Positions 1 to 27,430 of a stretch of 33,437 nucleotides of DNA are shown in pieces. The translations under genes and the position numbers were made by a program. This DNA comes from Sphaeroforma arctica JP610 (lineage: Eukaryota): assembly GCF_001186125.1 (NCBI RefSeq), contig NW_014040173.1:1-33437 (forward strand), read 5' to 3'. How positions within the stretch are numbered: position 1 is the first letter of the stretch; each line of letters begins with the position of its first letter. The notes under the pieces were generated by a model. It was given only the letters and a program-made list of their open reading frames with translations. It did not search any database and had not been told where the DNA came from.

Positions 1-45
1 TTATACACTATGTAGTATACATATTAACCTAGTATAGCCTTAAAC

Positions 46-1541
46 TCATCTTTTGCCTTTTGGAGTGCTTTGGTAAATTTTTTTTTCTAGCTCTTCATCA
101 TAATCAACTTCTAGTATTGCTTTCTTGAGTTCCAGTACTTCTTTTGAAAGTGTAGCTATGTCTCGCACGTTGTCGCTATCAATGAACATCTGTACCCGCT
201 TTAAAAATGTTTCGTTCATAGCTTCGTCGCTTTCCTTTGAATGCGCCAATTCTTTCATGGCCTGTTCTTTCCTCTTTAGCTCCTTTTCATGTTTGGCGCT
301 GCGTGTACGTCCGGTTGATGTTGTGGACACACCGGAGTCAGCGCAGTCAGAAACTTCTGTGTCTTCCCATTCAATCGCACTAGACATCCCAGTAGTTAGT
401 GGGCTTCCTGCAACAGCACAGAGTGCTTTTAAAGCACCCTCCCCACGTGGCAATATGTACGTATACAACACCAGTGCACAAATCTTACCATTAAAGAAAT
501 CCATAAATGTGGGTGCATGATGGCCAGATTTCTCCTTATTTGTTTGCACAATCCCAAAGCTAGATTTGGCATCTTTCCACCAAGAGATTAGTCTGTTTCT
601 CACGGCTGTCTTGCAAATAATGCCTCCAAACATCTTTCGGGCCTGTGTTGTAAATGTCATATCCATAGGATCGACTCGTCCTATTCGCTCAACCATGATC
701 TTCTGGGTAGCATTCAGGACATCCCAGTCCCTTTTCCACTGTTCGAGTGGAGGAGAGGCTGGATACTGCGACTTCTTTCTACGCCGTTCAGCTAACTTGT
801 CAGCGTGCTTAGTTACTCGTGCTCCTTATTGTCAAGCATAGCTCGTGTATCACCCTCTTCTAGTGATACAAGCCCGTCGTAGTGTTTCTCATCCGTAATA
901 ATTGCACAGAATCGTGCAAATGCATTGTCAGTCTTTCGAAGCGTCATCGCCTCATCCTTCAGTTTTAATGGAATTTCTTGTTTGTCTTTCTTCACCTTTG
1001 TCTTGCTTATTACTCTGTGCTTCTTCTTTGGTGTTATGTTTAGAGGGGTCGAGAGCCAATTAGGAGAGCCAGTTGTCGCTCTATCATTATCATACAACGC
1101 CTGATCTATTCGCTGTTTGGACTGGACGCTAAAACCCTTCTTGTCATGTACATCATAAACATGCTCTCGTGAATACATAATTTCGCCTGCTGCATCACGT
1201 TTGACAGGTACTCCTCTAACGGTAAGACTTAGCATTTCTTCCCTTCGTATGTGTTCTTTGTACGCCGATTCACGAAGCCATGCTGAATAATTTGGCTGTT
1301 GTGTGCGCCTCGTTACATTCTTTGTCTCTCTTTGAAAATCTGTCTCTCCTTGCGAATCCGATGAAGTACTTGAAGAGCTCGAAGACGCTTGAGAGGTGAT
1401 CGCCATCGATTGATTCGACGGCGGTGTGCTAGTATTCTGCATAGGATTGGTTTCAATCCCTGAGGAAGTCGATGCCGTGTGCTGCGTCCCCATAGTATTC
1501 GGGTTCGATACTGCATTAACCTGCTGTTGCGATGCCGACAT
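46..1541 (-). pseudogene. Frameshifted hypothetical protein (ORFs 813-1541 + 46-~812); possibly a transposon accessory protein
   Basis: Two same-strand ORFs are joined by one frameshift near 812-820: the 46-696 frame stays open upstream as VTKHADKLAERRRKK...WKRDWDVLN. The protein has a S/T/Q-rich N-terminus, motifs FARFCAII..D, R.MLD, WWKD..SSF and SGHHAPTFMDFFNG, and a coiled-coil-like C-terminus. Function is not recognisable with certainty. Confidence 0.45.
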
Positions 1542-3025
1542 GGTATAGTTTGCGAGTCAATAACACTTGTGCAATATGATTCCTTCATGTTCTTCGTTTT
1601 ATGTTCGTATTCGACTATGTTCCCTCTGTACTGTTTCCATAGATAATTGAGTGTGGATCTACCTATAACCGACAACTTCATATATATATGTGTGTGCACA
1701 ATTGAATTGAGCGCTCAAACCAATGAAAACACACAACATTTGACACCACATTTGTAAAAGGGCGGTTTTCCATTCTACCAATGAAAGGTTTTTACTCATT
1801 CTACGTCACAGTCGACAAACGTACTTTAACGGTACGTATTCTCGTTTTTCGTTAGCCTTTAACAACAAATTCTGAGCACCTTGCTGTTTAATGAAATTTC
1901 GAAAAACAAAAACTATGTGTTCTCATTGGTTGAAAAATACCTTTAATTAAACGGATTTATTGAAAACTCCTCGTTAAGAACCACCCTTATCCTAGGTATA
2001 AGGTTGTTATACCATGGAAGTGGTGTCCATGTAAATGTTCGTAAATCTCTGTGGTCGTTTATACTATGCTATAACTGTCTAATCTATCAGTACTAAACCT
2101 TGTACGTGTGTAAGATTCTGCTATCGCAATCAAATTAGCATTCACGGGTAAGATTATGAACGTGTGTGTATTTCTTATGAAAGCACTGATGTATGTCTAT
2201 TTCTATTGTTATTATATCATGTTTTAAACCTCTATTATTTGTTCTGATAAAAAATAACTCCAAGTTATTGTTAAATTACTATGCATTTCTAGTGAATGTC
2301 TGTCCTTTTGAAATCACGTGATCGTACCATGTCAAGTGCCCATGTGTGTGATTCAATTAGTGTTGTGTGTGCGGAAACCATGTAGTTGCCAAGCTCATGA
2401 CTTCCTCTATTATGTGTAAAAATACGAGTGCGGTAGCATGCTTATTTTTTGAGATATGCGTGTTTGTATGTATGTTATATGTTGGTTATTACATGTTTAT
2501 GTATGTTAACGTTTATATCGAACCGTTTAAAACAAATGTAAAACGTAAACGTATTCACATAAACGTTTTCCTTGAAAAAAAACCATGAAAAAGTCTGGCC
2601 CCATTTGTAGATCCCCTTTTTTAAAATATATAGTCAGACTAAAAGCGTAAAACGCATTAAACTAAAACCAATATGTTTATGACAGATTATACATCTCGCG
2701 CTTCTTCGTCTACGAGGGTGCAGAAGCCTGTCGGTATACTTGGTATTTGTTAAGTCAGTATACCCTTTTGCTTCCTTGTTTATTACAGGTTCAACGAAGC
2801 AGATAGAGGCCCCTCTTAATAATAAATGATGCTTAGAGACAACCTCTACATGCCGCGTGTAATCAACTCCTTCATATGTTTTGTAGAATTACCGTCGCTG
2901 GTATAAATATGATTACTTCTTGATGTGTTGTTAACTGGGTGTGTGTGTGGGAGTGTGGTGTGGTGTCCTCTGAAGCATATTCGAGTTGGGCGCGCATTCG
3001 GTGACTCCGTCACAGCGCCTTGCAC

Positions 3026-3840: not shown

Positions 3841-4368
3841 TTAACCTTGGACCAGCCGTCGCTGTCGTCGACTCTCTCGAGTTTGAATCCGCTTACGGTA
3901 TGCAGTCACCACGTTCGGATCATCAAAGGCATCCGCTGTCACCCATGTGGGAGAGCCCTCTAACCAGCGCATCAGGTACTCCGATTACTAAGTCGCCTCA
4001 TTGTGGCGGTGTAATATGATGTGCCGGAATGTTGATCCCCATTCTCTCCATAGTGATTCATCTAACGGTGGCTTCGTAGCTCGGTGAACTAACCGAATAA
4101 TCTCCACATTAACTTGACGGTCTCTGAGTTCCGGTGGTTTGTTGCCATCCTTGTCTCGTAAATGGTAACTCTGATTCATCGAATTTTTTGGTCTCAATTC
4201 TTGCATCTGTTGCACTGTGTCCGCTGGAGCAGGATGTCCTTGTTCATGAAACTGCCAAGTAAGCTGTACCCGGCGATTAGTTTCTTCATGTCCAGGATGA
4301 TTGATCAGTGCCGCCCCCGCACAAATTTCAGGCACCTGTTTCGCAATCTGGCGTGTACATCTGGTCAT
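3841..4368 (-). pseudogene. Integrase remnant (HH half of the zinc-binding motif, C-terminal region) plus chromodomain
   Basis: FHEQGHPAPADTVQQM, then directly SYHLRD...RQVNVEIIRLVH. Reading through two stops at 3985-3990 gives IILHRH..EYLMRWLEGSPTWVTADAFDDPNVVTAYRKR (chromodomain), ending with TAA at 3841. Confidence 0.75.
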
Positions 4369-4501
4369 GGCTGGTTGCGTTTATTTCTCTTGATAACGAT
4401 TATGAGCATCCTCACACACAGGAACTTCGAGACCCAAGTTACACCAAAATGATGGATAAACTTTATAACCCGATTGAGGGTCAATCGTACCACCACCGAA
4501 T

Positions 4502-4905
4502 TCATAGATACTTACCACATGCTTGTGTGCCATGCTTCAAGAACGTATGGGCTGTGCGCGGAATAAGCAATGGATCTGCTTGCATCATCGATAGAAGTAG
4601 AGGGAACCATGGCGCCCGTGTGTTCAATGGGAGACACACTGTCGCGGACGCCATATCCGTCAATACTTTACGAAGTACCTTATGAATAAGGCGCCATGGT
4701 GGGTTCATCCATGCATTGTACTTGCTCCGGTCAAATTTAAAAGCGCCTCCATCTTAATCGTATGGCCAGTACTGTCGTAGCTGATCATTGTGGCTTGATA
4801 CAAAGGCGTCAACGTCGTTAGGTCCGAAGTATTTTTGAGTCTGATCATTGGAATTGGGATACAACTTCCAGCACAATGTGTAGAAGATGGCGGGAAAGTT
4901 GATGT
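4502..4905 (-). pseudogene. Dam-like / DIRS-type DNA N6-adenine methyltransferase domain inside pol
   Basis: In frame with RNase H: FYTLCWKLYP..KYFGPNDVDAFVSSHNDQLRQYWPYD*DGGAFKFDRSKYNAWMNPPWRLIHKVLRKV..ATVCLP....PWFPLL. NPPW is at 4694-4705, with a single internal TAA at 4754-4756. Confidence 0.8.
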
Positions 4906-4929
4906 CCGCCATGCCTTCATGGACCCTGC

Positions 4930-5930
4930 TCCACATGTCTGGTAATTTATTCAGCTCACCAGGGACGTGTATTGTCACAAAACCGAATTACGCAAAGATG
5001 TGATGCCATCGTTGCAGCATGCTGTTCAATTTCAGTTGGGTGTTCATATATATCAGCGCCTTGTGGCCCATGTGCACGGTAAAGCGCTGGCCTATTAAAT
5101 GATCATGGAATTGGACCAATGCATATGTAAGCGCTAACAATTCCTTTATTTGTGTTGCGCATGTCTGCTGCGCCTTGCTGAGAGTCTTCAAAAAGAACAT
5201 CAGGTAGTGTTTGCGGCCGTCAATTAACTGAAATAATGCACCTCCGATACCATAATCATTGGCATCAGTATCTAATTCGAGTGGAACCCCGTCAACCGAA
5301 AAATTTAACTGTACCGCAGACAGGATTGATTCTTTCATCTGATCCCATGCCAATTGATGTTCTGGTTTCCAACAATCCCCAATCGGTTCCTTCGGCTTGA
5401 GTTTCGAGAACGATCGTAGTGGGGCCACTTTATGTGCAAAGTTAAGTAAATGCTCATGTAAAAAGTTCGCCAACCCCAATGCAGATGCTATGTCCCTTTG
5501 ACATCGCGGCACTGGCCAGTCGATCAACCGTTGTTGCTTTTCATGATCAACGTCAATTCCTTTCGTAGAAACCTTCTTCCCCAGGACCATAACCTCGCTT
5601 ACTGCAAAGTGACACTTCTACTGGTTACGCTTGAAGTTGTTCTCGGTAAGCCGTTGGATGACCTCTTCAACTGTTGCAATATGTTCCTCGATCGCTTGCC
5701 TCTTAAGTTACTAATAATCTCATCGACATTCGGGAACGTAAACTGGTCTCCCGGAATAAGGGCGTTGATCTGTCGCAAATCCAAACACACCCGAACCTTA
5801 ATGAGTTCCCCCGATGGTGTAAATGATGGTACTGCTAGTAAAGGCAGGTTGACCACTGACGCCGACGTGCGACGTTTGGCTACCAACTCATGCTCCCTTT
5901 TATGTACCTGTTGCGCGATGTGTGTTTTTT
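4930..5930 (-). pseudogene. pol: Reverse transcriptase (core deleted) and RNase H of Gypsy type
   Basis: VRVCLDLRQINA..FTFPNVDEII..LRGK joins directly (~5693) to IEEHIATVEEVIQRL..KCHFAVSEVMVLG. Downstream are DWPVP, LGLANF, LELDTDANDYGIGGALFQ, KELLAL, HKAL and IHVPGELNKLPDMWSR. Confidence 0.9.
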
Positions 5931-6588
5931 ACTTGTCTGACGCAAAGTTCCGTGTTTGTCGTCGAAGGCCCAAATGTTTATCTCGAGGTATGGGAAGGGA
6001 TACTTCGCTGCCTGGTAGAGTACATCGAGCCGCATTCAAAATGGTCTCGTTGGCATCTAAGTACTGTCGTAGTCGTTGCCGTACATCCTCAGGTTCAGAC
6101 AAGTCTGGTGCCATGCGAATGTCGATCGGTTCGAGTAGCTCATCCATAACATTACGATTGATTTCTGGAAATGGTGTTGATAGTCCAGTAAGACCTAAGC
6201 CCAATTCGCTCATAATATCCATTCCCAGAACTACATTAATATTATCGAGTAAGTTCATAAGATCAAACGTACAACCTGCAGCAGACTTTATACCATATTG
6301 AACCGTCGTGGCGTGTGTCTTGCCGAAAAGCGGAGTGCGGAACGATTTGTCCGCCAAGTATATGTAACTATTCTTAGCTGGTGGTGTAATAGACAGTTGC
6401 GCTTTTGCCGCGGATGCCTGAGTAATAACGGAGCGGTTCGCCCCCGTATCAATGAGTGTGCGCATCGCGTGTCCGTTGACTTGTAACGTAACATATATAC
6501 GGTTGTCAGTAGGGAACAATTTATCTTTTACTGCAAATATTTTTGTTGCCGTTTGACCAAACGTCACGCACGCGTTTAACTCAGACAC
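5929..6588 (-). pseudogene. Retroviral-type aspartic protease
   Basis: YVTLQVNGHAMRTLIDTGANRSVI ... VVLGMDIMSELG, i.e. the D(S/T)GA and ILGMD motifs. Confidence 0.9.
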
Positions 6589-6792
6589 CCCATTATCTCA
6601 ATTTGAACTTAGCTCCTCTTCCCAATCGGCTGGCCCTTGCTCGGCCTCCATCAACTCATCTTCACTGTCGACATACGACTGGTCGACCAAATCATGAATA
6701 TGCATCACCTCACTCTCTCCTACCTCTGCTGGCGTCGGATCAGGCATCTGAGCACCCCCATGCACGAGATTAACTCGACGTGTAATAGCCGG

Positions 6793-7557
6793 GCCTTCAC
6801 ATTAGACTCTATGGTATAAACGTACTTTTAAGCAATACGTAAACTATAAACGTACTCTTAATAGTACGAGGAACTTAAGTTTCCTAAAATAGTTTTTAAC
6901 GGTTTTTATTAATTAAATACCTTTTCCATTGTACATATCAGATATTTGGATACGGCCATTAAAAGGCCAGATTAAAATGCCAAATATATGATTTGGACTA
7001 GTTCTATTAATAGAACTGTGTTAACTTCCAAATCTATTTATATCTGAATACTTCGGTAGCGAGATGGCTCAACCGAATACAGGTTTCTAGGGACTATTAG
7101 CGTCACCTAGTTTAACCTCCGTTCAGCCAACCAGATGTGCCAGTCTGATGAAGGCTAAGTCGGTAATTTTTGATAAGTGTCAAGTTATTGGCTAATGCAA
7201 TAACTATGGACATCAAGAGTATTTTTTTTCTTCTTTTTCTTTTTTTCCAAAGATAGGATTTTATGAGTCTCTCGGATTCGCCCCAACGAAACATTCCATA
7301 GTTTCTAATAGAGCGACAACGAAACACTAAATAAAATCCCTTCGGCGAAAACAGCACTGAGAGCATTATATATAGTCAATGTCGCAGCCTCACAATCCCT
7401 CAGAGTATTGCTGTTTTCACCAGACATACCCAACTTTACTAAAAGACTCATTTCGTTTATTTATTTCGAATTTAACTATACTTAGACTGAACCTAAGCCT
7501 TTAATTACTCTAAGGCGTTAATATCGCCTTGATATAAAATCAGAGGGCGGAAAGTAT
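6793..7557. mobile_element. AT-rich ~770 bp insertion between gag and protease
   Basis: Abrupt composition change. Flanked by the direct repeat tagccgg (6786-6792 and 7558-7564; gta.tagccgg 10/11). Removal gives a continuous frame GGK*QAPAITRRVNLVHGGAQMP. Confidence 0.55.
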
Positions 7558-7570
7558 TAGCCGGCGCCTG

Positions 7571-9306
7571 TTATTTTCCTCCAGCTGATGTACGGTGTGG
7601 TGGCGCACCCCCATGTTGCGTATGGCTGCTCGCGTTAGCTGATGTCGGTGCTCTCCTTAACTTTGGACAATGTGGTGCGTGTGCTGGGCCAGGAGGGAGA
7701 TTTTGCTCACATGACCGACAACGAGCCCTAGGGTTCGATGCTGGCGGCGCATGCGAATTAGCTTGTGTGTTTTCCTCTACACGCATTCGTGTGCGTGAAC
7801 GTGATCCCCCAGGGATTTGTGGCGGTCGGGAAAGGTTTGCCCGACGGTGTTCTTCCGTCTGGTCAATATTCACGCGAAATACATCACACATTTGCGCCAC
7901 GGAATATTCTCGCCAGTTTGGGTGCATACGAAGAGTACCACGGTAATATGCACACCCCTGCAGTTTGATTGATTAGGTTGAGCATATCATGGTTGCGGTA
8001 CACTTGTAGCGGATTCTCATACTGTCGCATCTCCATAAAGTCTACTTTGCGTTCAAAATCTTGTGTCTCTAGCGGCACCGAAGGGCTTAATTTCATGCAA
8101 GCCAATACATTTCTGTATGCGTTATCCTCCAGATCTTGTTCGTGTGTGCGTACAATAAAAGTGGTGGCATCCTGAAACGACATGGACTGCAATTTTGTTC
8201 GTTCTCCACCATAAAGTCCAAGAGCGCCTTGGGTGCTTCTTCTTTCTGTAGTGATCTATGTAGGCCCATCTGTATAAGAATCGGGTCTATTTTGTGAAAT
8301 TTTGCATTCTTATGACAATCCAAGATAAATGCATGCAGCTGTATCTTCTGCGGATTATTAAAATAATAGCTGCCCTGTGGATTAGGTGGCCATTCCTTGG
8401 GTGTCGACCGTTATTGAGCAAGTTTACAATGTCTCGTTGAATGTGCGAATTAAACCCTGCAACGAACGAGCTTCTTCGGTGCGCCCCTCATCTTCTGCTT
8501 GCATCATTCGTTGGGTGAGTAGGAATACTTGCGTTTTCATCTCTACTGCAGTAAAATCAGGAATGCACGCCTCAGTAGGCGGTGATGTCTTACATCGTTT
8601 CACGTCTTGTGGGTCTTCTAGGTAGCGATCGTGGTGAACAGGAAAGTGCTTACGGTATGCAAGCGTATCGATAGGTACATTTGCATTATCTTGGCAGTTC
8701 TCCTTTTTTCTTCTGGAGATCGCGGACGACGATGTTGTTGTGATTTGTCCCGGAATGAATTTGCTGCCGCTTGACCGTGAGTAGGCTGTTGGCGTGGAGA
8801 TTTCATCACTCTGCGAAATGCCTCAAAAGACCGCTTCGCCGATGATGACAAATTATGAGGGGTAGCCATGTCCATGTGTAAGTCCGCTGGGTCCAATTTG
8901 TATTTACCAGGTGATTTCACCAAAGTTGTTGATTCCTGATACCGATCCGGACCATCAGCCGGCATCTCATCAGCAACCGCTCTATGCGCGTAACATGGTC
9001 GTTCTCGTAAGGAGCCACTTGGGGTACGGGCTTCGTGCGGCCACTCCTGCGTTTCACCGGGCTAATTTGCTTCATGTCGATAGCCTCGCTGCCAGGTGAC
9101 TAGTCGGTTGGTGTCGACTCTGCCTGTGTTGGATATTGAGGGGCCTAATGTTGTTGCACTGTTGGTTTGGCCTCAGTCTCAGAAAAAAGGTCATTCACTG
9201 TCGCCTGGGTCGTGTCCTGAGGCATCGACGTGTCAATATCTGCCAGTGACAATTGACAGAATTGGTGGAGTTGCTCTTCAATGAGGCGACCTTTTTTTCT
9301 TTGCAT
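7571..9306 (-). pseudogene. gag: gag-like region, fragmented; C-terminal zinc-knuckle-like motif
   Basis: Chain of minus-strand ORF pieces (8618-8965, 8093-8323, 7884-8192, 7571-7927) upstream of the protease. CRSCEQNLPPGPAHAPHC = Cx2Cx9Hx3C. Candidate ATG at 9306 (MQRKKGRLIEEQL). Confidence 0.55.
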
Positions 9307-9752: not shown

Positions 9753-11508
9753 TAGTTAATATTTAAATGGACCACATCAACTATAACTCGTGGAATAACT
9801 CAGAACACATCATTGTATTTACCAGGCTCATACATAATTCAGTGTCTAAATCTCACGTCCCCAGTTTGTCTGCATAGTCATCGTCCACACTAAGGCTGCG
9901 CAATGTACACATTTCCCGCCAACAGCAGTAAGACACTCACAGTAATACTCGGCAATGTCGTATTCATCATTTTCTTCCATCTTCAACCTAGCATACGCTT
10001 TGCATGAATCAGTTTTCATTGATCGAGGCATATGGGCTGTGACACACATTTGTCTGTCCATCTTTTGTGCCAATATTCGTATCTTCATCCACTTGAAAAC
10101 GAAAATTTTAATCACATCATTCATTCTGGCTCAGTTGAAACACCCTGAAAATCTGTCAGGATACTACCAGCATCATGTTTAACCGATATACGGGCAGCAG
10201 TACGGTTTTGCCCTTTTTGATATGTAGCAGAACCAAAATAATCCCTCATAAAGTCGACAGATATTACTGGTAATAAATTCCAATCTACACTATTTACAGG
10301 TGAGTATACGCACTTGAAGATAGGTGGTAGCGAACTGGGGTCATACACATCTAGCGCTTTATGTGGACATGTGAACGGATTGTATTCCCCGCCAGAATAA
10401 ACCCTAAAACCCCATTCGACATCAATGGTTGGTATACCAGAAAGTGAGATGCAATCTTTTTCACAATCAGCGGATACCCACGCGTGTGTATAACTATAAA
10501 GAGCCTGCGTGAATGATGACCTGCAATTATTGTACACACTCTTACCTAATACATCTTCTAGTGCATCCAGTATGTACTTGTGTGAGATACTAGTAGGTGA
10601 ATCTATTTTCTTCTTAAGATTTGTCATCAAATTTTGCTATTCGTTTTCCACCTACCCCTGTAAGTGCTTCGCCTGTTTGACGTAGTTGCCTAGTATGATC
10701 ACATCCCGATAGTAACACATACGCCAAAACTGCACCTTCAGTAATGCTCTACTTAGTCATAAAAGCCTTTCGATCATCATGTGTATATAGGCACACATTG
10801 AATTTCGTAGGTTTTACACGCATTTCTTCGTTAATTGGTTTAAGATAAACATTCAACCCCGTATACCCCAGAACGTCAGAATATACAGTAGCAATACATG
10901 ACGATGCCTCAGACTTGCAAGCAAGATATATAAGCTGCTGATCAGCTTCATAGGGTGTGACCATTCTAGGATACTGTTGCGTTGCACAAATGCCAAGAGC
11001 CACAAGGACGTGATCCCAAGTACGGATACACGCTACTTTAAGTGAAGAGAAACCTGTATTCTGCTTACCTAAACCTTTAGCATCTTCCTCATGCCACTTA
11101 TCAAAAGCCTTCTTGACATTCAGACTTTTTTGTCCGGCTTCGTAGCGCTTCGACGGCGGTACATCACCATCAAAAACATAGTAGGGTTCACAACCTAATT
11201 GCTTCGTTAGCGTAGTGTGGTAAAGCTGAAAGACAGCAACTATCTCTTTCTTAAGTGCAGGTGTACAGCCTCCGTTATTGTGTTTGTAAATTTCATTTGC
11301 TATTTCCTCAGCATTTGAGTAGCTAAAACGCGTACAGCGTGTGATTGCAAGATGCACTAAGCATGATGCATCTATGGAGATAGTACGGTTTTCAAACGCA
11401 TCAGACAGTGATTTAAAGTGTGTGGCGCACTTTTTTTAAATCATATATGGTTTGTAGTTCCCCATCGTAAATCTTTTTGAAATAGTGGAGTGCGTGATTG
11501 ATCCCCAT
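9606..11508 (-). pseudogene. XPG/FEN1/EXO1-family (PIN-like + H3TH) nuclease fused to a SWIM zinc finger, of ISL2EU-ORF2 type
   Basis: MGINHAL (ATG 11508), frameshift at the T-run 11431-11437, RTISIDASCLVH, YVFDGDVPPSK, TPYEADQQLIYL, TVYSD, stop at 10749, LLSGCD..GVGGKRIAK, frameshift ~10630, FTQALYSYTH, LPVISVDFMRDYFG..YQKG, AHMPRSMK, YCECLTAVGGKCVHCAALV (SWIM CxC..CxH), then PQQWQVP after a cag acceptor. Confidence 0.85.
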
Positions 11509-13543: not shown

Positions 13544-13575
13544 AGGGTTTAGGGTTTTTAGGGTTTAGGGTTTTT
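13544..13575 (+). repeat. Short telomere-like (TTTAGGG-type) tract
   Basis: agggtttagggtttttagggtttagggttttt. Confidence 0.7.
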
Positions 13576-14910: not shown

Positions 14911-15781
14911 GGCTATAGACCTATCTATAACTGATCTGGTTTGGGTTAAAAAAAAAAGGTAGTAGTTTTCGATGTATTATACATGTCAAACACTTTGGAT
15001 ACTAAATAGTAATAAAAAAACATGTTTAAAAGAGATACATAATATGTTTTATACTATGTATATTGCTCTGTATGGGTTTTACTATACGTTTTAAACACTC
15101 ACTGTGTCAGTTATGTTGGTGTCATGTTTAGAATTTGTGACAACCACAAAAGTTTCAAAACTGAAACTCGAGACAAACTGAAACTTGAAACTGCTGATCA
15201 ACACTGAACACTACTGACAGTCTAACCATAAGGTTAAGTTATATTGATATATAAGTTAAACGTTTTACTTTTACTTTTGCGTTTGCAAACGTTGCAACGT
15301 TTTACTGTTTCAATTTGGACCTCAATTATTTCGTTTTGCTGCTCACGATAGTGCAATTATTCTCACTTTGGCCACGAAATGCAAAACCGACCCATGAAAA
15401 ACGACTGGGAAGTGATGACCGGTGAATATTTTTTTCTGGCAATATATTATATGGTACTTGTGAATTTGTGAAGTTGTCACACTTACTCACTAAATACTCA
15501 CTAGACACTAAGTCACTAATAACACACATAAAAGTCAAACCAATCGTGCTGGTAGACTGAGTTAGTGTGTAGCCTGTTGCCTATAGGCTGTAAATTATTG
15601 ATACCTCTTATCAATTATATATACCTTACTGCTAAAATATAAACAACGTCGATATCAACGTCCAGACAATCGATATCATCATGAACTCAATTGAAAACTT
15701 TACTAAAGTTTTAATTGAATTATGATATATACAGATAAACAACCTGTACGTATTCAGCACTCATTGACTATAGTTTACTAT

Positions 15782-16853
15782 CTATGACTCGGAGTGTACA
15801 TATATATCATTTTCTTCAGCTTCGTCCTCCACCTGCACAATTTCAACAGTTCGCGTTACAGCTTGCGTTGTTGCTGTCATTCGTGGCACGACAAACTTTA
15901 CAAGCTGATTAGCACCGACTCTAATGATAATCTGAATATCAGGATCACAACGATCACCACTGCCTTTTAAACTCATCGGTGAACATCATACTTGGTACTT
16001 CTGCACCCGGACCCAAGTGATATAGTTTATCATGTAGTATTTCTTCTTGTGCATCAGAATTAAACCTTTGTACTTTTGGATAAAAGATTTCTTACTAGTG
16101 TTGTTACTACAAACCACATTAGTTTCCTAACCCTCGATAAACGTCTGCACTGTTTGAAAACCTTAAATAAGGGCCATTGAAATGACAGGTTCCGTATCGT
16201 CCGCATCAGCACTAGCTTCTTGTACCACATAGTTGTGATTGTAGAATCGCGCAAAGTCATTATAGTCTTTGTCGGTGACTTTGAACTTATCAGGATTGAT
16301 AATGATCCCATCTCCTACGGTATGTATAGTTTAAAAAGCAAGTTAATTCTGTATTGAGAGTCTGAGAGTCGAAGATCAAAATTATTTATATATAAAAATG
16401 CTCAAATAAACATTGTCCCAACACTACAAATCAATACCTGTTATTACCCATTCCTCTGAATCAGCCAAGTTTGTGTTATGTCTGAGCTCGGTTGTAAAAC
16501 AAACCTTGGTTCTGACAGGCCCTATATACCCACTCCTTTCCATCATGTCATACTGTTCCTTGCTGATGTCTCCTAGCCGAACCTTGCGCTTTGTACATAC
16601 ATCTTTATAGGATTCCCACTGGCGTTCCTGTACCGTCATGTTCGCGGTAGTAAAGCATTTCATGGCAAATGGAGCAATGATGGGACATCCATGTATACCT
16701 ACAATTGTTGACCTCCATTCGCCTGGACCGTACTCTGGGTTGGCATAAGAGTGCATACGCTCGGCGAAGTAGCCCTGTTGAAGATAAAATTTGACGCTGA
16801 TCCGCTAAATCAGCGAGAACAGGATCTGTGTCACTATCAGCGTGTTTCATCAA
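15782..16853 (-). pseudogene. hAT transposase C-terminal part (dimerisation domain and tail)
   Basis: PGEWRSTIVGIHGCPIIAPFAMKCFTTANMTVQERQWESYKDVCTKRKVRL matches the hAT pattern P..WW..G..P.L...A.R.L....S..ERNWS.F..VHTK.RNRL. The tail (FIQKYKGL..YMINYITW) continues with stops after a probable intron at ~16315-16410. Confidence 0.7.
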
Positions 16854-17031
16854 TTAACTTACCACTAAAATAAATAGTAATTTAGTAACTGAATTTTTAT
16901 AAGTATCAAACACACATTTTGGCATGTGTGAGAGATTTATTATCAGTTTAGGTACTAGTTTTGACTAGAATAGCTGGAAATCCTTATCTTTGACATCTAT
17001 GTATGTGTGTATATGTAGGTTATAAAACAAG

Positions 17032-19076
17032 ATGGGAGTTCTAGGATTGTCCCCACTAGTGTCGCTTCTGTTAGTTAAGACCCCGTTGACGAGTATTGTA
17101 GGTGTTATAGATATCGATGCAAGCATGATCGCTCACCAAATAATGAGGACACACGCAGTTGATATCGTTTTAGATAAAAAAATTCAACATTTCCTGCTTG
17201 ATGTCTGGTCATCATTGCAACGTCTTCAGTCGTATGGTCGTGGCATCGTAAAACTCTTCATGGTATTTGACGGCTACAGAGTTAAGGAAAAATTGGCAAA
17301 CGAGAAGCGTGAAGAGAGTCGGAAAAAAAATCAATGCAACCAATAGAATAATATATAAAGGAATGCAATGCACATTTGCATATATTTTTGTTGTTAACTT
17401 TTGATCATATTTAAGTATATTTATTTAAAGTTGTGTTTGCATCCATGATTTATATACAACTCACTAAAAGATAGAATCAACCAATAGAAGAATATAAAGG
17501 TATATATGCATGCATGCATGCATGCATGTACATATGGGAGATCAGGCGTAGTGAATGTGTTCTACCGACGGAACGCACAGATATCCAACATCAGGGATAT
17601 TTTTTTAGCCTCAGAGGATGTGCCGGATGAAAGCAAGTTGAAGCCTGAAGTATTGGCTTTTCTACTGGCCGTTATCAAACATGGATTCGATGGTTTCTTG
17701 TTGCTTGTAGGACAGTTACTGCACACTGATTACCGAAGTCGTACAGGTATGACGACAGCATCTTTTGTTAAGTGGCTCACGCAGTATATTAGTCATTTCA
17801 ATGACAAGCCTTCAATTCAAAATGCTTTTGAGAATAAGGGATTTGACATGGATAATCATGCTGTATCTCAAATAGAGTGTATCAATACAAAGGGTATATT
17901 TTTCACACAGCCTGTATTTGCACGGAAGGAGTATCCAATTTCTGTTGAAGATGAAAGCTATGTACCATACGATGTGTTTGGGGAGGGCAAATCAATCAGC
18001 CGCTACGAACTAACTTGCCTTCATGATGTACTTACTAAGGCACGTAGAGAATTGTTAGGCCTACCAGCAATGTATTTGGAGGAGAAGACGGAGTCTCTTT
18101 ACATCTATATGCCAATAGATATGCAGTATAGCTACAGAATGGGTTATTATTATATCAAGTACCCTCCTTGGACACTCGAATACGATTATAATGTAGATTA
18201 TCAGCACTGGAGACCACGCTGGAGTAAGCTACTTCCATTAGATCCTATCCCTTGGAGTGCCACTTGTGTAGAGTCAGAAATTTGTGCGTTTGCCCTCATG
18301 AAAATACCAGCTCTGCGCACATATGCAGTCCAACGCAGTATTGTGATACCAGCTCGTTATAGTAAAAGAAAACTTATTGTTGAGATTTTAGCACAGAACA
18401 AATGCGGTGCTGAAGAGGCTGCTCGTACCTGAATGTGCTAAGGCTTTGTTGGCCGCTAGAAGAGATACTGAGGCGGATCTGAAAAACACGTGTAAGAAGA
18501 TGAACTTTTCTACTTGTTGTATCCAACGCAGTTGTTAAGACGTACTTTGAAAAGTCAGCGTACAAACTACGACAAGCAATTGAACAGCAGAAACGAAATG
18601 TGGTAGGATTGCAATATACAAGTGTACCGTTGCGTGATGATAAAGATACGAACGCTAATTATGTGGTTTCAGTCGAAGAATGCGCTTGCATGCTTCCATT
18701 GAAGGATTCCAAAAAAAAAAAGTGCCGACAGACGAAAGCGAGGGCGAGACCAAGATACTCAAGGTATGCTTTTGCCTTAATCATACCAATTGCGTTCACA
18801 TTCGTGCCACACTCGAACGTGTGTGACCGAAGACTCGAAAATATAATTCAAATCAGCATTATAATGCTTGCCCAACAATGTACTGGTCAAAGCAAAGACT
18901 TCCGATGCGCCGTTACTCGCGCAAAGTTTAATTCAATATCAAAAAGACATATGAATGCATTGAAGTCTCCGATGAGTGATACGGAAAGGAAGTTGTATGA
19001 AGCATATATAGCGACAAAACTAAATACGTACCCTGCTGAGAAGAAATGTCCTTACTGGAGGCGCAACACTAAATAA
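17032..19076 (+). pseudogene. XPG/EXO1-family nuclease + SAP-like + SWIM protein (second gene of the transposon), degenerate
   Basis: MGVLGL..IDIDASMIAH..FMVFDGYRVKEK...EKR (XPG-N). LLHTDY (H3TH-like). MKIPALRTYAVQRSIVIPARYSKRKLIVEIL (SAP-like). LLVVSNAVVKTYFEKSAYK. An alternative frame at ~18766-18798 gives CFCLNHTNCVH (SWIM). The XPG-I segment (EAD/DSD) is not visible; an AT-rich tract at 17346-17530 occupies its place. Confidence 0.75.
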
Positions 19077-19160
19077 ATCCGGGTACTAGTAGCTTAATAA
19101 ACGATTGAAAATAAAATACACAGACATGTTTTTCTGATCTTTGTTTGTATTGCTATTTGT

Positions 19161-21609
19161 TCATAACAAGTCCAAATCATCTTCACCCTCACTAAACACT
19201 AAATCAAAAAGTAATTCGTCCGCAACCAGGTCTGTGCTCGCCGCATTCTCATTACCTCCTTCGATGGATTCTTGGCCATCCACCAATCCGTGTTTGGTGG
19301 TTTGAGATTCACCAGACCCTGGCAACTTGGGCCTCATGGTCGGCTAAATCAATTTCCGAAAGTGATTTATTTAAACCACCGAATCCCCGATAACTCCTCA
19401 GTTCTTCCATCGTCCGCTCAATATTTGTTCTTTCTTTTGCGATATTTCTGTCGGTTTCTGCGCGTTCGGGTTCAAAAGCAAATTGGCCTTGTTGCCGCTT
19501 TTGTGGGGTCAACACTGCTATGCATAATTTCTCTAGTTCATAACGATCGGTTAGAACTTTATCATAAAGGTACACCATGATAGTCGAACCATCCCCAGCA
19601 ATCATTCTTGGCCCGTAGTTCTCGTTGTTATGCATCCCGGTATCTGTGGCGGATCCCGGGTATGTTTTCATAATGTCGCACACATATGTACCACTATTAC
19701 TAATAACATTGTGCTTATAAGTGGGATAGTTTTTATATTCACTATAAAATACGCTCTGAGCATCTATATCACAGCCTGGACGCTCAGCGCGTAATTCAAT
19801 TGCTTCGCCTATGTTAATCCCTACACCTTCCTGAATGTAGAAATACGGCCTCCGGTCAGTCTAAAATATCAAGATCAAATAAGATAACACATTGGCTTTT
19901 ATTTGTATTTAAAATAATTTAATACAAGTTTTCTTCTTCTTCAATATTCCCAAAGTGTTCTAAATTCACCTTGATGGCTCCAATAGCCTGAGTATTTGGT
20001 TTGACTCATTTACTTGGACCTATTTGAGACGATAGTAGATGTATGAAATTATAAACTAAATTTAATTATCTCTAAACTACTACTTACAGGTTTTGGTCAT
20101 CCCGCCAATCTTCAAAATCCAAAAAGTCTTTTTCTTTTATTAACTTTTCTTCAGATGGAACTTTATTAATTTTAGCTAATGTATTAACTTGACTTACCTT
20201 CTTATGTCTATCTGCAAATTCTAGTGAAAATTATTCAACTAGAGGTACGTCCTGAGTGATCGAGGATATTTAGGCTCTTAACAAGAGGCAGTCCCGATCA
20301 TTCTTGCACAAGCTACCACTGCTAAATCCTAACTGACTTAAATTGTATCTCAGTTTATATAACATAGTTTAAAACACAGAAATATCAATCGAAGGTTACA
20401 TGAAGATGTAATGCAGTGCGAGTACGTTCCGGAGTGAACTGTACCGACTGCTCAGCAGTCGGAAATGGCTGTCTGTTTTGAAATATTAAACTCAACGCTA
20501 TCGTGAATGTAATATAAATGCGTTTCACGGTATCATCCGTAATTCTGAAATACGCTCCTAATGAACTTAGATTATCTCGACTTTTTTTGAAAGCACATAA
20601 GCATATTAAAAATTTGTGCCACGTACTGAGTCTTGACGCACGGCCCTGCTGTGATATTTCTACGTCATCATCTTCACCTTCGCTGAAAACAACGCCCTCA
20701 TCACTTCCTTCTTCACCTTGCTTCTCCGCGTTCAATTGTGCACGACAATTTAATCTCTCTTTGTGAGACCACTTTACAAGCTCATCTAAACGATGGTCAT
20801 AATTCAACCAGTTGAATAAAAAATTTACGCACAGTAACGTTGGCTCCACTGTTTGTTCTAAACAGAAGCAGTGCTTCTTCAGCAAACTGATGAAGTATTC
20901 TCCCGGCTCAGGTATTGAAGTGGGTGTTGCGTCGTTGCTAGATGAGGGTACTGATATTGGTTGAACATGCGAATGTGTGCGCAAAATCGGAGTGAACACA
21001 TCGTTGATTTGTTTTGATATTGGTGTTATTTTCAACATCGAAGACTAGTATATTGATCCACTTGATCGAATCGTCAACATAACATGGTAAGAATACACCA
21101 TCTGTACTTGAAATATCCTTACCACATACTTCTTCACTATTTGTGCATACACATTTGGTGTATTGTATTCCCACTTCACCCCGAATTACAGGAACTCTAT
21201 CCAATTGATAGTCCCACTTTCATCGAAGTTCTCTAAAAGGTAGTGCGGAGACTGGGTGCATGTTAGGATATACTTGTGCGCCATTGTGTGTAAGATGCAA
21301 GTCCGTGATGCTGAAATGTTTCGCGTTGAGAACTGCATTGTTTGGTTTTCCTATACCTCCTCTTGTGGCCAACGCAGCAACGATATCTGCTTCCGTCAGA
21401 GCAGGATTCAATCTGTACAACCACTTGCGAGCTCTCATGGTTTCCGATTCAACGTTGCCTCTTTTTGCTTGACCTTTCGGTAATGATATTTTACAGCTGA
21501 CACCACTAAGACAATCGCGCACTCCACACAAACACTTCGACACCCCTTTACTTCGCTTCTTAGGTGGTTCAAACGCACCACGTCTGCTCGAAGAAGATAC
21601 TATATTCAA
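19161..21609 (-). pseudogene. ISL2EU/Harbinger-superfamily DDE transposase (THAP-like, HTH, DDE_Tnp_4-type core), interrupted
   Basis: CLCGVRDC..SLPK..ARKWL..VLNAKHF (THAP-like). RLSTWHKFLICL..LGAYFRITDDTVKRIYITF (HTH). After LTR removal: LHLQEGVGINIGEAIELRAERP..AQSVFYSEYKNYPTYK..YPGSATD..YDK..IAKERTNIERTMEELRSY. Stops at 21220 and 19309, frameshift ~21040. Confidence 0.88.
19836..20400. mobile_element. Solo LTR (565 bp) with 4-bp TSD TGAA
   Basis: Begins TGTA and ends TACA. tgaa lies at 19832-19835 and 20401-20404. Excision restores the transposase frame (ALHL|QEGVG). Confidence 0.88.
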
Positions 21610-21715
21610 AGCAGATATGATCGAAAATAATCACATGATGGTTACGATAAGGTGTATAAAATATATATTTTACAGTCAAAATGTACTAACATGAATTCAG
21701 TCATTAAATTACTAT

Positions 21716-21811
21716 TTTTATTGAGCTTTAAGCTAATAGCTTTTCACTGTCATACATCCAACATAAATACATAGACGCGGTACATGCCTCAGAATCTGCA
21801 TTCCGTAGAGA
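21716..21811 (-). pseudogene. Short hAT transposase core fragment
   Basis: LRNADSEACTASMYLCWMYDSEKLL resembles the hAT LR.VDSD.P.MG..Y..M segment. It has the same strand and the expected order between the BED and dimerisation parts. Confidence 0.45.
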
Positions 21812-22170
21812 TGTAGAAATACGGCCTCCGGTCAGTCTAAAATATCAAGATCAATTGAGATAATACATTGGTTTTTATTTGTATTTTAAATAATTTAATA
21901 CAAGCTCTTTTTCCAATATTTCCAAAGTGTTCTAAATTCACTTTGATGGCTCCAATAGCCTGAGTATTTGGTATGACTCATCTACTTGGACCTATTTGAG
22001 ACATTAGTAGATGTAGGATATTATAAACTAAATTTTATAATCTCCGAACTACTACTTATAGATTTTGGTCCTCCCGCCAATCTCCAAAATCCAATAAGTC
22101 TTTTTCTTTTCCTTTTTTTAACTTTTCTTCAGATGGAACTTTATTTATATCAGCTAATGTATTAACGTGA
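21812..22170. mobile_element. Second copy of the same LTR, truncated by the assembly gap
   Basis: The first 43 bp are identical to 19836-19878, and the copy is roughly 90% similar by eye up to the N-run at 22171-22190. Confidence 0.85.
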
Positions 22171-22603: not shown

Positions 22604-23977
22604 ATATTAATATACTTGACAACGCTCAACCGACGCGTTGGGCGGGCAATAGTTACGATATGTGGTTAGGACAAAACTCTGATTTGGACAATGCTCACAC
22701 AGCTTTAGGACTACGAATGTATACGAAAAAGTTCAACTTTTTACTTTTACTTTTTCATTTGAAAACGTTGCAACGTATTACGTGATGAGGTTAGCTGACA
22801 GTAATAAGTGAGTGTCATGTTGATTTAGTTAAGGTGGGCTATATATCCAATAGTCATTGGTGTAATGTTAAATGTTGACATTACGTACCTCTGATTGGTA
22901 TAGAAGAAAAAAAAGTTTAGCAATTTTGTAAATCTGTATTAAACCAACAGTTAAAAATATGTAGTAAACTATTCTATGTATTATACATGTTGAACACGTA
23001 GTAAACCAAAAAAAACATTGTCGGAAACCAGGTCAGAACTATTGACTCTTTAATTTTATAGAGAGTATGTCTGATATCAGTATTTTTTTAAATTTTTTTA
23101 TTGAGAGAGTCACTAACTCACTATACCTCTCGGCTCTCGCACTGCTCGTATTCCTCCATACAAACTCACAAAGGTTAAAAATGAACGATATTTGTGGCTA
23201 AAATTTTCTCAATTTCTACCTTCGTTTCTAATTTCCATCTAAGACCAATCGAATATCTTCAATATGTTTTGACTAGTCTTGATTCGCTTTTTATTTTCTC
23301 CGGATTGTGCAATTTCGATGACTTTGTGAATTGTGTATGTTGTCTGTAAAGATTTCCCCCAAATGAGTATTTACACCACAAGTCCATAACAGAAAAAAAA
23401 ATGGTATATCCAATTAAAGACCGAGCCGAAGTCTCCGAAACCACAAGAACATATTTTTATCTGCAGTTTGGGTTATGGATAATTTGAAGAAAAAAAGGAA
23501 ACAAATAAAATATAAATATAAATATAACCTCCCATGATAAATTTTAGGTTTCTTTTGAAACAATACATGCATTGCGCCTTGCGGTTTGCACTTTGCAGGC
23601 CAGCAGTATAGCAGCACTGACATATTTTTGATTTTGGCGTTTTCTACAGAGTACAGACTTCTGGAGAGTACTAATGAATGCCCTACCGTGAACAGTCTAC
23701 AGACCTCCAGGCTCCTGCATGCCAGAATTCTGAATTCCCCCAGGACCATTCCAAATACGAGTATTTCTTAGACGAAGGTATGTAGGATGAGTCCTTTATT
23801 CGCCTTCTGTGTATATATTTAGGTATTTAAATACTATTACTATCCGATACAGCCAGAAGTGAAATCACATTTCATTACATACGAGAAGTTGCAAGCCACC
23901 ACGAGCAAGAATCGGGTATCATGGTCAAACAACAACAACAACAACTTTTAGACACATAGTGGGTAAGGATTCTAAGT

Positions 23978-26549: not shown

Positions 26550-27430
26550 TCAAACAAATACACTAATGAACACGCTCTCGCCCAGGTTCAGTGTTGCATG
26601 CCACCAATCGTTAGGGATGTATAGAACCTCTCCGCGGCCCAGGACTGTGTGTGATGTGCGTGCGTGAGTGGATGAGCCCCCGGTGCATGAGTAAGGAGAG
26701 AAAAGGCCAATTGTAATACAAATAGGCAGCAGAGCTTTTGTCATCATGCAGCTCCGAGGTATGTATGTGTACGCACACACACACACTTCTGTACATAAAT
26801 TGATAGAGTAATAGAATGAAACGTCAATGTTGTGCATGTACCAGGATTGGTGAATAAAGACAGGCCTTTCACATACACATAGACTTGAACTTGTCCATTG
26901 ACAGGTAATCGTTCTGGCTGACTAAGAGATATTAGATGGTACAGACGACATCGTGCATAAATTTGTACGACACCAATACATTTATGATCCGTTAATGTTT
27001 TAGTATGACAAAAGAAAATTTGTACGTGAACAATAAGATATACTTAACACCTACAGCTTTGTAGTGGGTATGAGTCACAAAACTACCTTAAGAAATATAC
27101 ATTCACACAAATTACATCCTTAACTAGTAAATTGAGATAATTCCTGCACCTATCACCGAAATCAAACACTATCCTCGGAGATCCACCGAATAAACCCAAA
27201 CGCTGAAGCACACAGCGCGCACATATACACAGGAACATACGCAAGCACCCGCAACGCACACACGTACACGTACACCCACAAAAACAAACCCCCACACATG
27301 CGTGTTCACACAACCACACAGACGCACACAGAGACACGCACGTACCCATTCACAAAAACACAAAACACACGCACAAATACATACACGCAGAAACACACAC
27401 ACACATATTTATACACACACACACACACAT

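Follow-up and report, generated by a model that had tools for sequence, protein, structure and literature searches.

The subject of this article is a transposon in a 33,437-nucleotide stretch of the Sphaeroforma arctica JP610 genome (NCBI RefSeq assembly GCF_001186125.1, contig NW_014040173.1, positions 1 to 33,437, forward strand), which we call the window. On our best reading it is an ISL2EU-like transposon with terminal inverted repeats (TIRs), of a variant kind in which the transposase gene is partnered by a nuclease of the XPG/FEN family. A sequence-only reading of the window had proposed this pairing, with no YqaJ protein, and in this part the proposal held up, although the support does not extend to its further ideas that this nuclease replaced YqaJ and that 5' processing is required by the group: transposases related to the one in the window are found fused to the same nuclease subfamily, and for this reason we do not regard the two genes as chance neighbors. 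It is important to remember that the window copy itself is dead. Both of its genes are broken, as is evident from stops and frameshifts, a D-to-E change in the transposase, a 565-bp insertion, and an XPG-I region that can no longer be recognized.

The nuclease gene and its transposase-fused relatives

The partner gene is the second open reading frame of the element (ORF2), and its parts are as follows.

17032-19076, plus strand: whole ORF2 pseudogene, an XPG/FEN-family nuclease with SAP-like helices and a SWIM-like finger, carrying several stops and frameshifts (frame-tolerant profile alignment).
17032-17343, plus strand: XPG N-domain, in which the two acidic residues of this domain are kept (IDAS, VFDG) (Pfam XPG_N; fused-XPG-N profile).
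17344-17585, plus strand: damaged stretch at the place expected for the helical arch and XPG-I; AT-rich, with a short internal duplication, an (ATGC)n run, and stops (sequence).
17660-17760, plus strand: probable H3TH motif, LLHTDY (xNDY in relatives), collinear in the frame-tolerant alignment.
18290-18400, plus strand: SAP-like helix pair, aligned to the corresponding segment of relatives.
18670-18900, plus strand: SWIM-like finger, C-x-x-P ... C-x4-C-x-H and then a conserved W, frameshifted (profile alignment).

The convergent gene had originally been recognized by its XPG-N motifs, and these are indeed present: the plus-strand ORF 17026-17343 matches Pfam XPG_N with 23.3 bits (E=9.4e-5), just over the Pfam cut-off. 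When scored with a profile built from three XPG-N domains of transposase fusions, the ORF2 N-domain reaches 48 bits, versus 23 on Pfam XPG_N, and the window's other XPG gene, described below, scores 13 bits on that same profile. In a frame-tolerant alignment, ORF2 follows positions 1-724 of the 749 in the nuclease-module profile of its relatives. The order of the parts is kept throughout, from the N-domain and the H3TH-like motif through the SAP-like helices to C-x-x-P, C-x4-C-x-H, and the W that is conserved. The profile score is 88.6 for the whole of ORF2 (shuffled mean 23.7, maximum 31.9) and 57.4 without the N-domain (shuffled maximum 30.6), and in neither case did any of 100 codon shuffles reach it; the SAP-/SWIM-like part (18250-19100) scores 49.4 versus a shuffled maximum of 33.8. 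When 112 real stretches of the window were compared with the nuclease profile, the six best all overlapped ORF2, and the best unrelated stretch reached 40.8. By these alignments, ORF2 is a member of the nuclease subfamily that is fused to homologous transposases.

Our Pfam scan covered ORFs and stop-read-through frames in 17026-21630. It returned no YqaJ, Myb/SANT, SAP, or SWIM match in the frames of ORF2, and the earlier statement that no YqaJ motif is visible between the TIRs agrees with every ORF and frame scanned. The SAP-like pair and SWIM finger that had been described in ORF2 earn no Pfam score on the window; they are predicted through alignment to the corresponding segments of relatives, nine of which have the C, C, H, and W of the SWIM-like finger invariant. 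A PDB sequence search with ORF2 gave no match. Predicted structures are poor (predicted local distance difference test values of 32 and 47), and the sole row from VIA-align that was not a helical bundle, ZSWIM8 for residues 551-708 (Z 6.2, root-mean-square deviation 3.2, 94 aligned), lies below the trusted range and should be treated as a lead only.

The relatives come from a full HMMER search with a 173-aa piece of the DDE domain, which returned 55 proteins chosen on the DDE domain alone. The nearest are from S. arctica: P0007 (74% identity), P0001 (69%), P0009 (55%), and P0015 (50%), which points to an ichthyosporean host. Among 30 proteins whose origin was examined, the others are metagenome or sequencing-run proteins and one tick protein. 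No YqaJ match at E<=0.01 was found in any of the 55.

Two of these homologues, P0017 (1534 aa) and P0047 (1580 aa), have Pfam matches to XPG and to DDE_Tnp_4 within the same ORF. They are intact single-ORF fusions with XPG, SAP-like, SWIM-like, THAP, helix-turn-helix (HTH), and DDE parts, in the same domain order, at 27% identity to each other. All five acidic motifs of the XPG/FEN family are retained in both; the I-domain E-x-E and D-x-D and the H3TH aspartate are present in each, and P0017 matches Pfam XPG_I at E=1.7e-9. Other arrangements are also found. The end of the nuclease module is fused to a whole transposase in P0002, P0028, and the cluster member P0064, and the nuclease module is fused to only the half of the transposase bearing the second D and the E in P0036, P0044, P0043, P0039, and P0030. 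In P0032, an XPG-N domain is joined directly to that half. Please note that the nuclease-module profile, matched by 10 of the 55 homologues, was trained on nine of those ten, the independent matches being P0032 and the Pfam hits only.

The Atlas clusters nearest residues 1-780 of P0047 carry XPG_N/XPG_I, at 0.93 and 0.91, with an "Exonuclease 1 family" cluster second. Those nearest residues 270-600 of P0036 are animal SAP/SWIM clusters at 0.78-0.81, below the trusted range, and by model the same residues come nearest to a YqaJ-bearing cluster (template-modelling score 0.44 over 193 residues); each of these is a lead only. A metagenome scan yielded one locus (L002) from 23 candidate stretches. 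It holds a split transposase with convergent halves, a THAP/HTH/first-D half at 1-736 (plus strand) and a second-D/E half at 901-2652 (minus strand), the latter corresponding to the half to which P0036, P0043, and P0044 have the nuclease fused. Word-indexed homologue searches found no relative, nor did viral-contig scans, which gave one unrelated phage locus; plasmid and phage tblastn and a PDB sequence search with alignment A6 had no match.

Ends, transposase, and surroundings of the element

The remaining parts of the element, from left to right, are listed here.

16853-16854, no strand: AT, probable left target-site duplication (TSD), where the inverted end alignment begins, mirroring 21736-21737.
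16855-16905, plus strand: left TIR, about 51 bp, with the outer 21 bp decayed and the inner part formed by a 20-mer with an 18/20 match (41/54 columns versus the right end).
19260-21630, minus strand: transposase pseudogene with two THAP-like modules, HTH, and a DDE_Tnp_4 core; start codon not fixed (Pfam and profiles).
19836-20400, no strand: 565-bp high-copy insertion with TG...CA ends and a 4-bp duplication (TGAA), splitting the transposase (read depth and homologue alignments).
21684-21735, minus strand: right TIR, about 52 bp (paralogous contigs and inverted alignment).
21736-21737, no strand: AT, probable right TSD, common to two paralogous contigs that diverge immediately after it.

The element spans approximately 16855-21735, with TIRs of about 51 bp each, on which the inverted alignment and the paralogous contigs agree. 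In the local inverted alignment, 16853-16905 and 21737-21684 are identical at 41 of 54 columns; alignment of the 300-bp end regions scores 56, compared with a null mean of 34, and 4 of 1000 null sequences equal or exceed that score. The end was mapped with contigs from two sequencing runs aligned to 20405-21808, which represent the window's own copy and several paralogues of the transposase and TIR pieces at roughly 85-90% identity. In each of the two runs, two paralogous contigs match the window up to 21737 and then diverge with unlike flanks, and at 21704 three paralogous contigs have C, in agreement with the left TIR.

The sequence-only reading had drawn the TIRs as a 20-bp pair at 16876 and 21713. 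This 18/20 match exists, as one of six non-low-complexity pairs in the window, but it is only the inner, best-kept part of the longer TIR. The AT duplication that was placed beside the 20-mer lies inside the TIR, the ends having been misplaced by approximately 21-22 bp, and a different AT pair stands at the corrected outer ends, at 16853-54 and 21736-37. This pair is probably the TSD. It could instead represent the element's own last bases, because no empty site is found among the read-contig joints listed. Spy-type AAA/TTT ends were considered and rejected, as they fit only the inner 20-mer and not the ends set by the paralogues at 21737. A 784-nt inverted repeat in the window is an artefact of N runs.

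The minus-strand gene had been described as a THAP/HTH/DDE transposase. Its DDE part is well matched: the ORF 19312-19860 hits DDE_Tnp_4 in Pfam (E=5e-13), and transposase profiles match 20972-20400 (E=1e-29) and 19857-19315 (E=5e-58), with no match in a PDB sequence search using the DDE piece. THAP and HTH_Tnp_4 give no Pfam match on the window's own ORFs and read-through frames, and are suggested by the aligned regions of relatives (THAP at E 7e-4, below the cut-off; HTH_Tnp_4 at a best E of 3e-6 among clade members). In the alignment, the first D of the catalytic triad reads E, with the second D and the E kept, and the G after the second D reads V; both changed sites fall in columns that are invariant or nearly so in 26 rows. 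The gene also has a stop at 21220 and frameshifts near 21045 and 19310.

Homologue alignments break off at 20403 and restart at 19836, on either side of the 565-bp insertion. In the reads, the insertion stands at a depth hundreds to thousands of times that of single-copy DNA, and each of its ends is joined to many different flanks. Judged by its ends, the insertion is like a solo long terminal repeat (LTR), with no internal LTR-element sequence tied to it. A second copy of this solo-LTR-like repeat, 89-91% identical, is found at 21812-22170, 75 bp beyond the right TIR, where it enters an N gap. In the reads of another organism, an approximately 88% identical relative joins 19510-19654 to 20757-20911 almost directly; this copy is internally deleted and has no insertion.

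Outside the element, the minus strand carries a second XPG/EXO1-like pseudogene at 9850-11465, with XPG_N, a weak XPG_I, an H3TH motif, and a canonical SWIM finger, and with PDB matches to FEN1/EXO1 at E~1e-3. Its pairwise alignment with ORF2 is not above shuffles, and no transposase of the clade in question lies near it. It may be a partner gene orphaned by the loss of a further element of this kind. Coding-like pieces (about 15700-16850, minus strand) stand directly beside the left TIR, 16427-16804 being without a Pfam or NCBIfam match, and a 53-bp direct repeat (89%) at 15253-15305 and 22729-22781 flanks the element on either side. Elsewhere in the window are two long ORFs of 259 and 247 aa without a Pfam or NCBIfam match (46-1556, minus strand), the decayed remains of a Ty3/Gypsy-like retrotransposon with a Pfam aspartic protease and reverse transcriptase-RNase H (about 3900-8800, minus strand), a short GGGTTTA-like, telomere-like repeat run (13545-13575), and a JmjC/cupin-like exon, probably of a host gene (26553-26921, minus strand).

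Placement among known transposons

The transposase was placed in a midpoint-rooted tree of 37 rows covering most of the DDE core, with no Harbinger, Spy, Pangu, Nuwa, or Repbase rows; excluded were seven redundant cluster members and those proteins that are short or hold only half of the core. P0001 is the partner of the window sequence (100/99), and both fall in a clade of 34 rows to which the full fusions belong as well. This clade is split (100/100) from three outgroup rows, one of which is the tick THAP-DDE protein.

ISL2EU elements, a group of the PHIS superfamily, combine AT TSDs, a THAP/HTH/DDE transposase, YqaJ, and animal hosts, according to the available text of PMC4482050. The window element resembles them in its DDE_Tnp_4 transposase, for which THAP-like and HTH parts are predicted, in a nuclease encoded by the second ORF, in the probable AT duplication, and in length, being about 4.3 kb without the 565-bp insertion, compared with a mean of about 4.8 kb in the accessible portions of the published accounts (Han et al. 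2015, PMC4482050; Han et al. 2014, PMC4122938; PMC9179366). There are also differences. ORF2 of the window encodes an N-terminal XPG/FEN nuclease, whereas that of ISL2EU encodes YqaJ. The TIR starts with TA, and in ISL2EU usually with GG, which is a weak feature. The left AT is preceded by A and the right AT is followed by A, whereas an ISL2EU target (A/AT/T) would have T after it. Finally, the reported ISL2EU elements are all from animals, and the relatives of the window transposase, which include fused or split-fused proteins, form a clade of their own in the tree described above. If YqaJ is taken as the defining gene, the element is, on its predicted proteins, not ISL2EU.

Spy has been placed in one lineage with ISL2EU (PMC12730594), has a single ORF (PMC4122938), and is reported to be active (PMC11304231). 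PIF/Harbinger, Nuwa, Pangu, and Spy, also groups of PHIS, share with the window element a DDE_Tnp_4-type transposase, TIRs, AT-rich targets, and, Spy excepted, two ORFs. They differ in their partner, which is Myb/SANT, motif-less, or absent, and in their TSDs, which are TWA, CWG, TNA, ANT, or none. In the window, ORF2 has no Myb/SANT match and there is no 3-bp TSD (the 3-bp flanks, ATT and AAT, form no direct repeat), so that the features of PIF/Harbinger and Nuwa are lacking; the window element has two genes, unlike Spy with its single ORF, AAA/TTT target, and absence of a TSD.

Two more distant systems deserve mention. In Tn7, the TnsA nuclease cuts the strand left by the DDE enzyme TnsB; the system is bacterial and TnsA/TnsB involves a PD-(D/E)xK fold; the likeness would be one of function only. 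The nuclease of AcademX is reportedly an XPG enzyme, and AcademX, which belongs to another superfamily with 3-4 bp TSDs, is a precedent for the cargo and not for the pairing. Similar to the window element, it is a DNA transposon with its own accessory nuclease, thought to affect TSD length (PMC10045372, accessible text).

No description of an XPG-PHIS pairing was found in the open literature, with subscription journals, Repbase, and Dfam outside the search. The terms "XPG" and "SWIM" are absent from three supplementary files of PMC4482050, and the available text of PMC4122938, PMC9179366, PMC12730594, PMC10045372, PMC5718144, PMC10799480, and PMC5499597 makes no such link. Within the literature searched, an XPG-partnered element is new among PHIS.

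Weighing the pairing and the role of the nuclease

Several observations weigh against our reading of the element. The first concerns copies without the nuclease gene, which the sequence-only reading had named as a possible refutation: in both deep sequencing runs the nuclease gene stands at about single-copy depth while the transposase and TIRs have paralogues, and no second two-gene copy was seen in this organism's reads. Internally deleted derivatives, with joints 19674-20973 and 21545-21694, would explain a single-copy nuclease. The L002 contig ends before any nuclease, the searches yielded no intact two-gene relative together with its flanks, and most of the 55 homologues are fragments without context. 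In ORF2 itself, XPG-I gives no significant profile match (18 of 200 shuffles reach its score), the H3TH motif is not significant alone (32 of 200), and Foldseek on the weak model found no match at E<=0.001, human EXO1 appearing at E 0.4-0.8. In addition, Spy elements, with their single ORF, are reported to transpose although they have no partner of this kind (PMC4122938 and PMC11304231).

Single-copy depth also speaks for an accidental pairing, in which a transposon with a single gene acquired an XPG-like gene of host or foreign origin, by capture or by insertion of that gene, and so does the presence, 5.5 kb away, of the second XPG-SWIM pseudogene without a transposase. However, ORF2 is in the same subfamily as the transposase-fused nucleases and aligns with them along its length, and its position between the TIRs is confirmed by the paralogues. 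Chance capture is largely refuted, and we consider it very improbable.

The substrates of FEN-family enzymes are 5' ends and 5' flaps. Our account of the paired element, in which belief and doubt are evenly balanced, is that the window holds a dead ISL2EU-like copy with an XPG/FEN nuclease that, in active relatives, would dock on the transposase and trim the 5' side of the element's ends. The transposase would nick the DNA and transfer its 3' ends into AT. Of the other parts of the partner protein, the SAP-like one may bind DNA and the SWIM-like one the transposase, and the nuclease would cut the non-transferred strand or clip the 5' flap of the donor DNA, by analogy with TnsA in Tn7. Animal elements would use the YqaJ protein in this position, a nuclease of unrelated fold that would sit on a similar SAP-SWIM scaffold. 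The several fusion arrangements suggest that transposase and nuclease act on the same DNA, the acidic motifs that are kept point to an active nuclease, and the fusion of the two in intact relatives makes joint trimming of DNA ends likely. The convergent layout could become one or the other of the two fused layouts if the transposase gene were inverted as a whole or in its C-half only, although this is a guess from geometry.

When the possible roles are ranked, processing of the 5' end or flap within the transpososome comes ahead of resection, scaffolding, and chance capture, at a confidence that we would put midway. The nuclease might instead act after excision, by EXO1-like 5'->3' resection of the donor site and copy-back from the sister chromatid, which would raise copy number and be helpful to the element without being required. 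The XPG family includes EXO1 besides FEN1, and the second-placed Atlas cluster is consistent with this; YqaJ is grouped with lambda-type resection exonucleases, which fits a common resection role, and Spy does without a partner. However, in P0036, P0039, P0043, P0044, and P0030 the nuclease is fused to the C-half of a split transposase, the catalytic half, which puts it in the transpososome; end processing fits this at least equally well, and we see post-excision resection as possible but unlikely.

It is less likely still that ORF2 serves as a scaffold, with SAP-like DNA binding and SWIM-like contact similar to the Myb partner of Harbinger, and with the nuclease as exchangeable baggage or kept for another purpose. 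The SAP-SWIM part appears common to YqaJ-type proteins in which the nuclease differs (a lead), and ORF2 of PHIS elements is called a DNA-binding protein of unknown function in the accessible text of Han et al. (PMC4482050). Against a scaffold stands the retention of the catalytic acidic motifs in relatives that are only 27% identical.

A broader proposal, which we put forward tentatively and with more doubt than belief, is that end processing of this kind characterizes a distinct, undescribed protist group of PHIS elements that reaches the unicellular relatives of animals. Its transpososome would have two nucleases, DDE for the 3' ends and XPG/FEN for the 5' side, as a eukaryotic counterpart of TnsA/TnsB in Tn7, wired as separate, fused, or split-fused proteins, and animal ISL2EU would be the branch in which YqaJ has taken the place of XPG while the SAP-SWIM scaffold was kept. 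DNA-end processing, if it is indeed the role of ORF2, would explain how clean ends and the 2-bp AT duplication might arise. A self-contained transposase-nuclease is also a possible tool for genome engineering, and the single-ORF fusions P0047 and P0017 make the end-processing idea testable with one point mutant. The window copy is dead, and its value is only as evidence of the range and the two-gene layout of these elements. Taken with the natural fusions, the occurrence of two unrelated 5' nuclease folds in one slot points to DNA-end processing as the role of ORF2.

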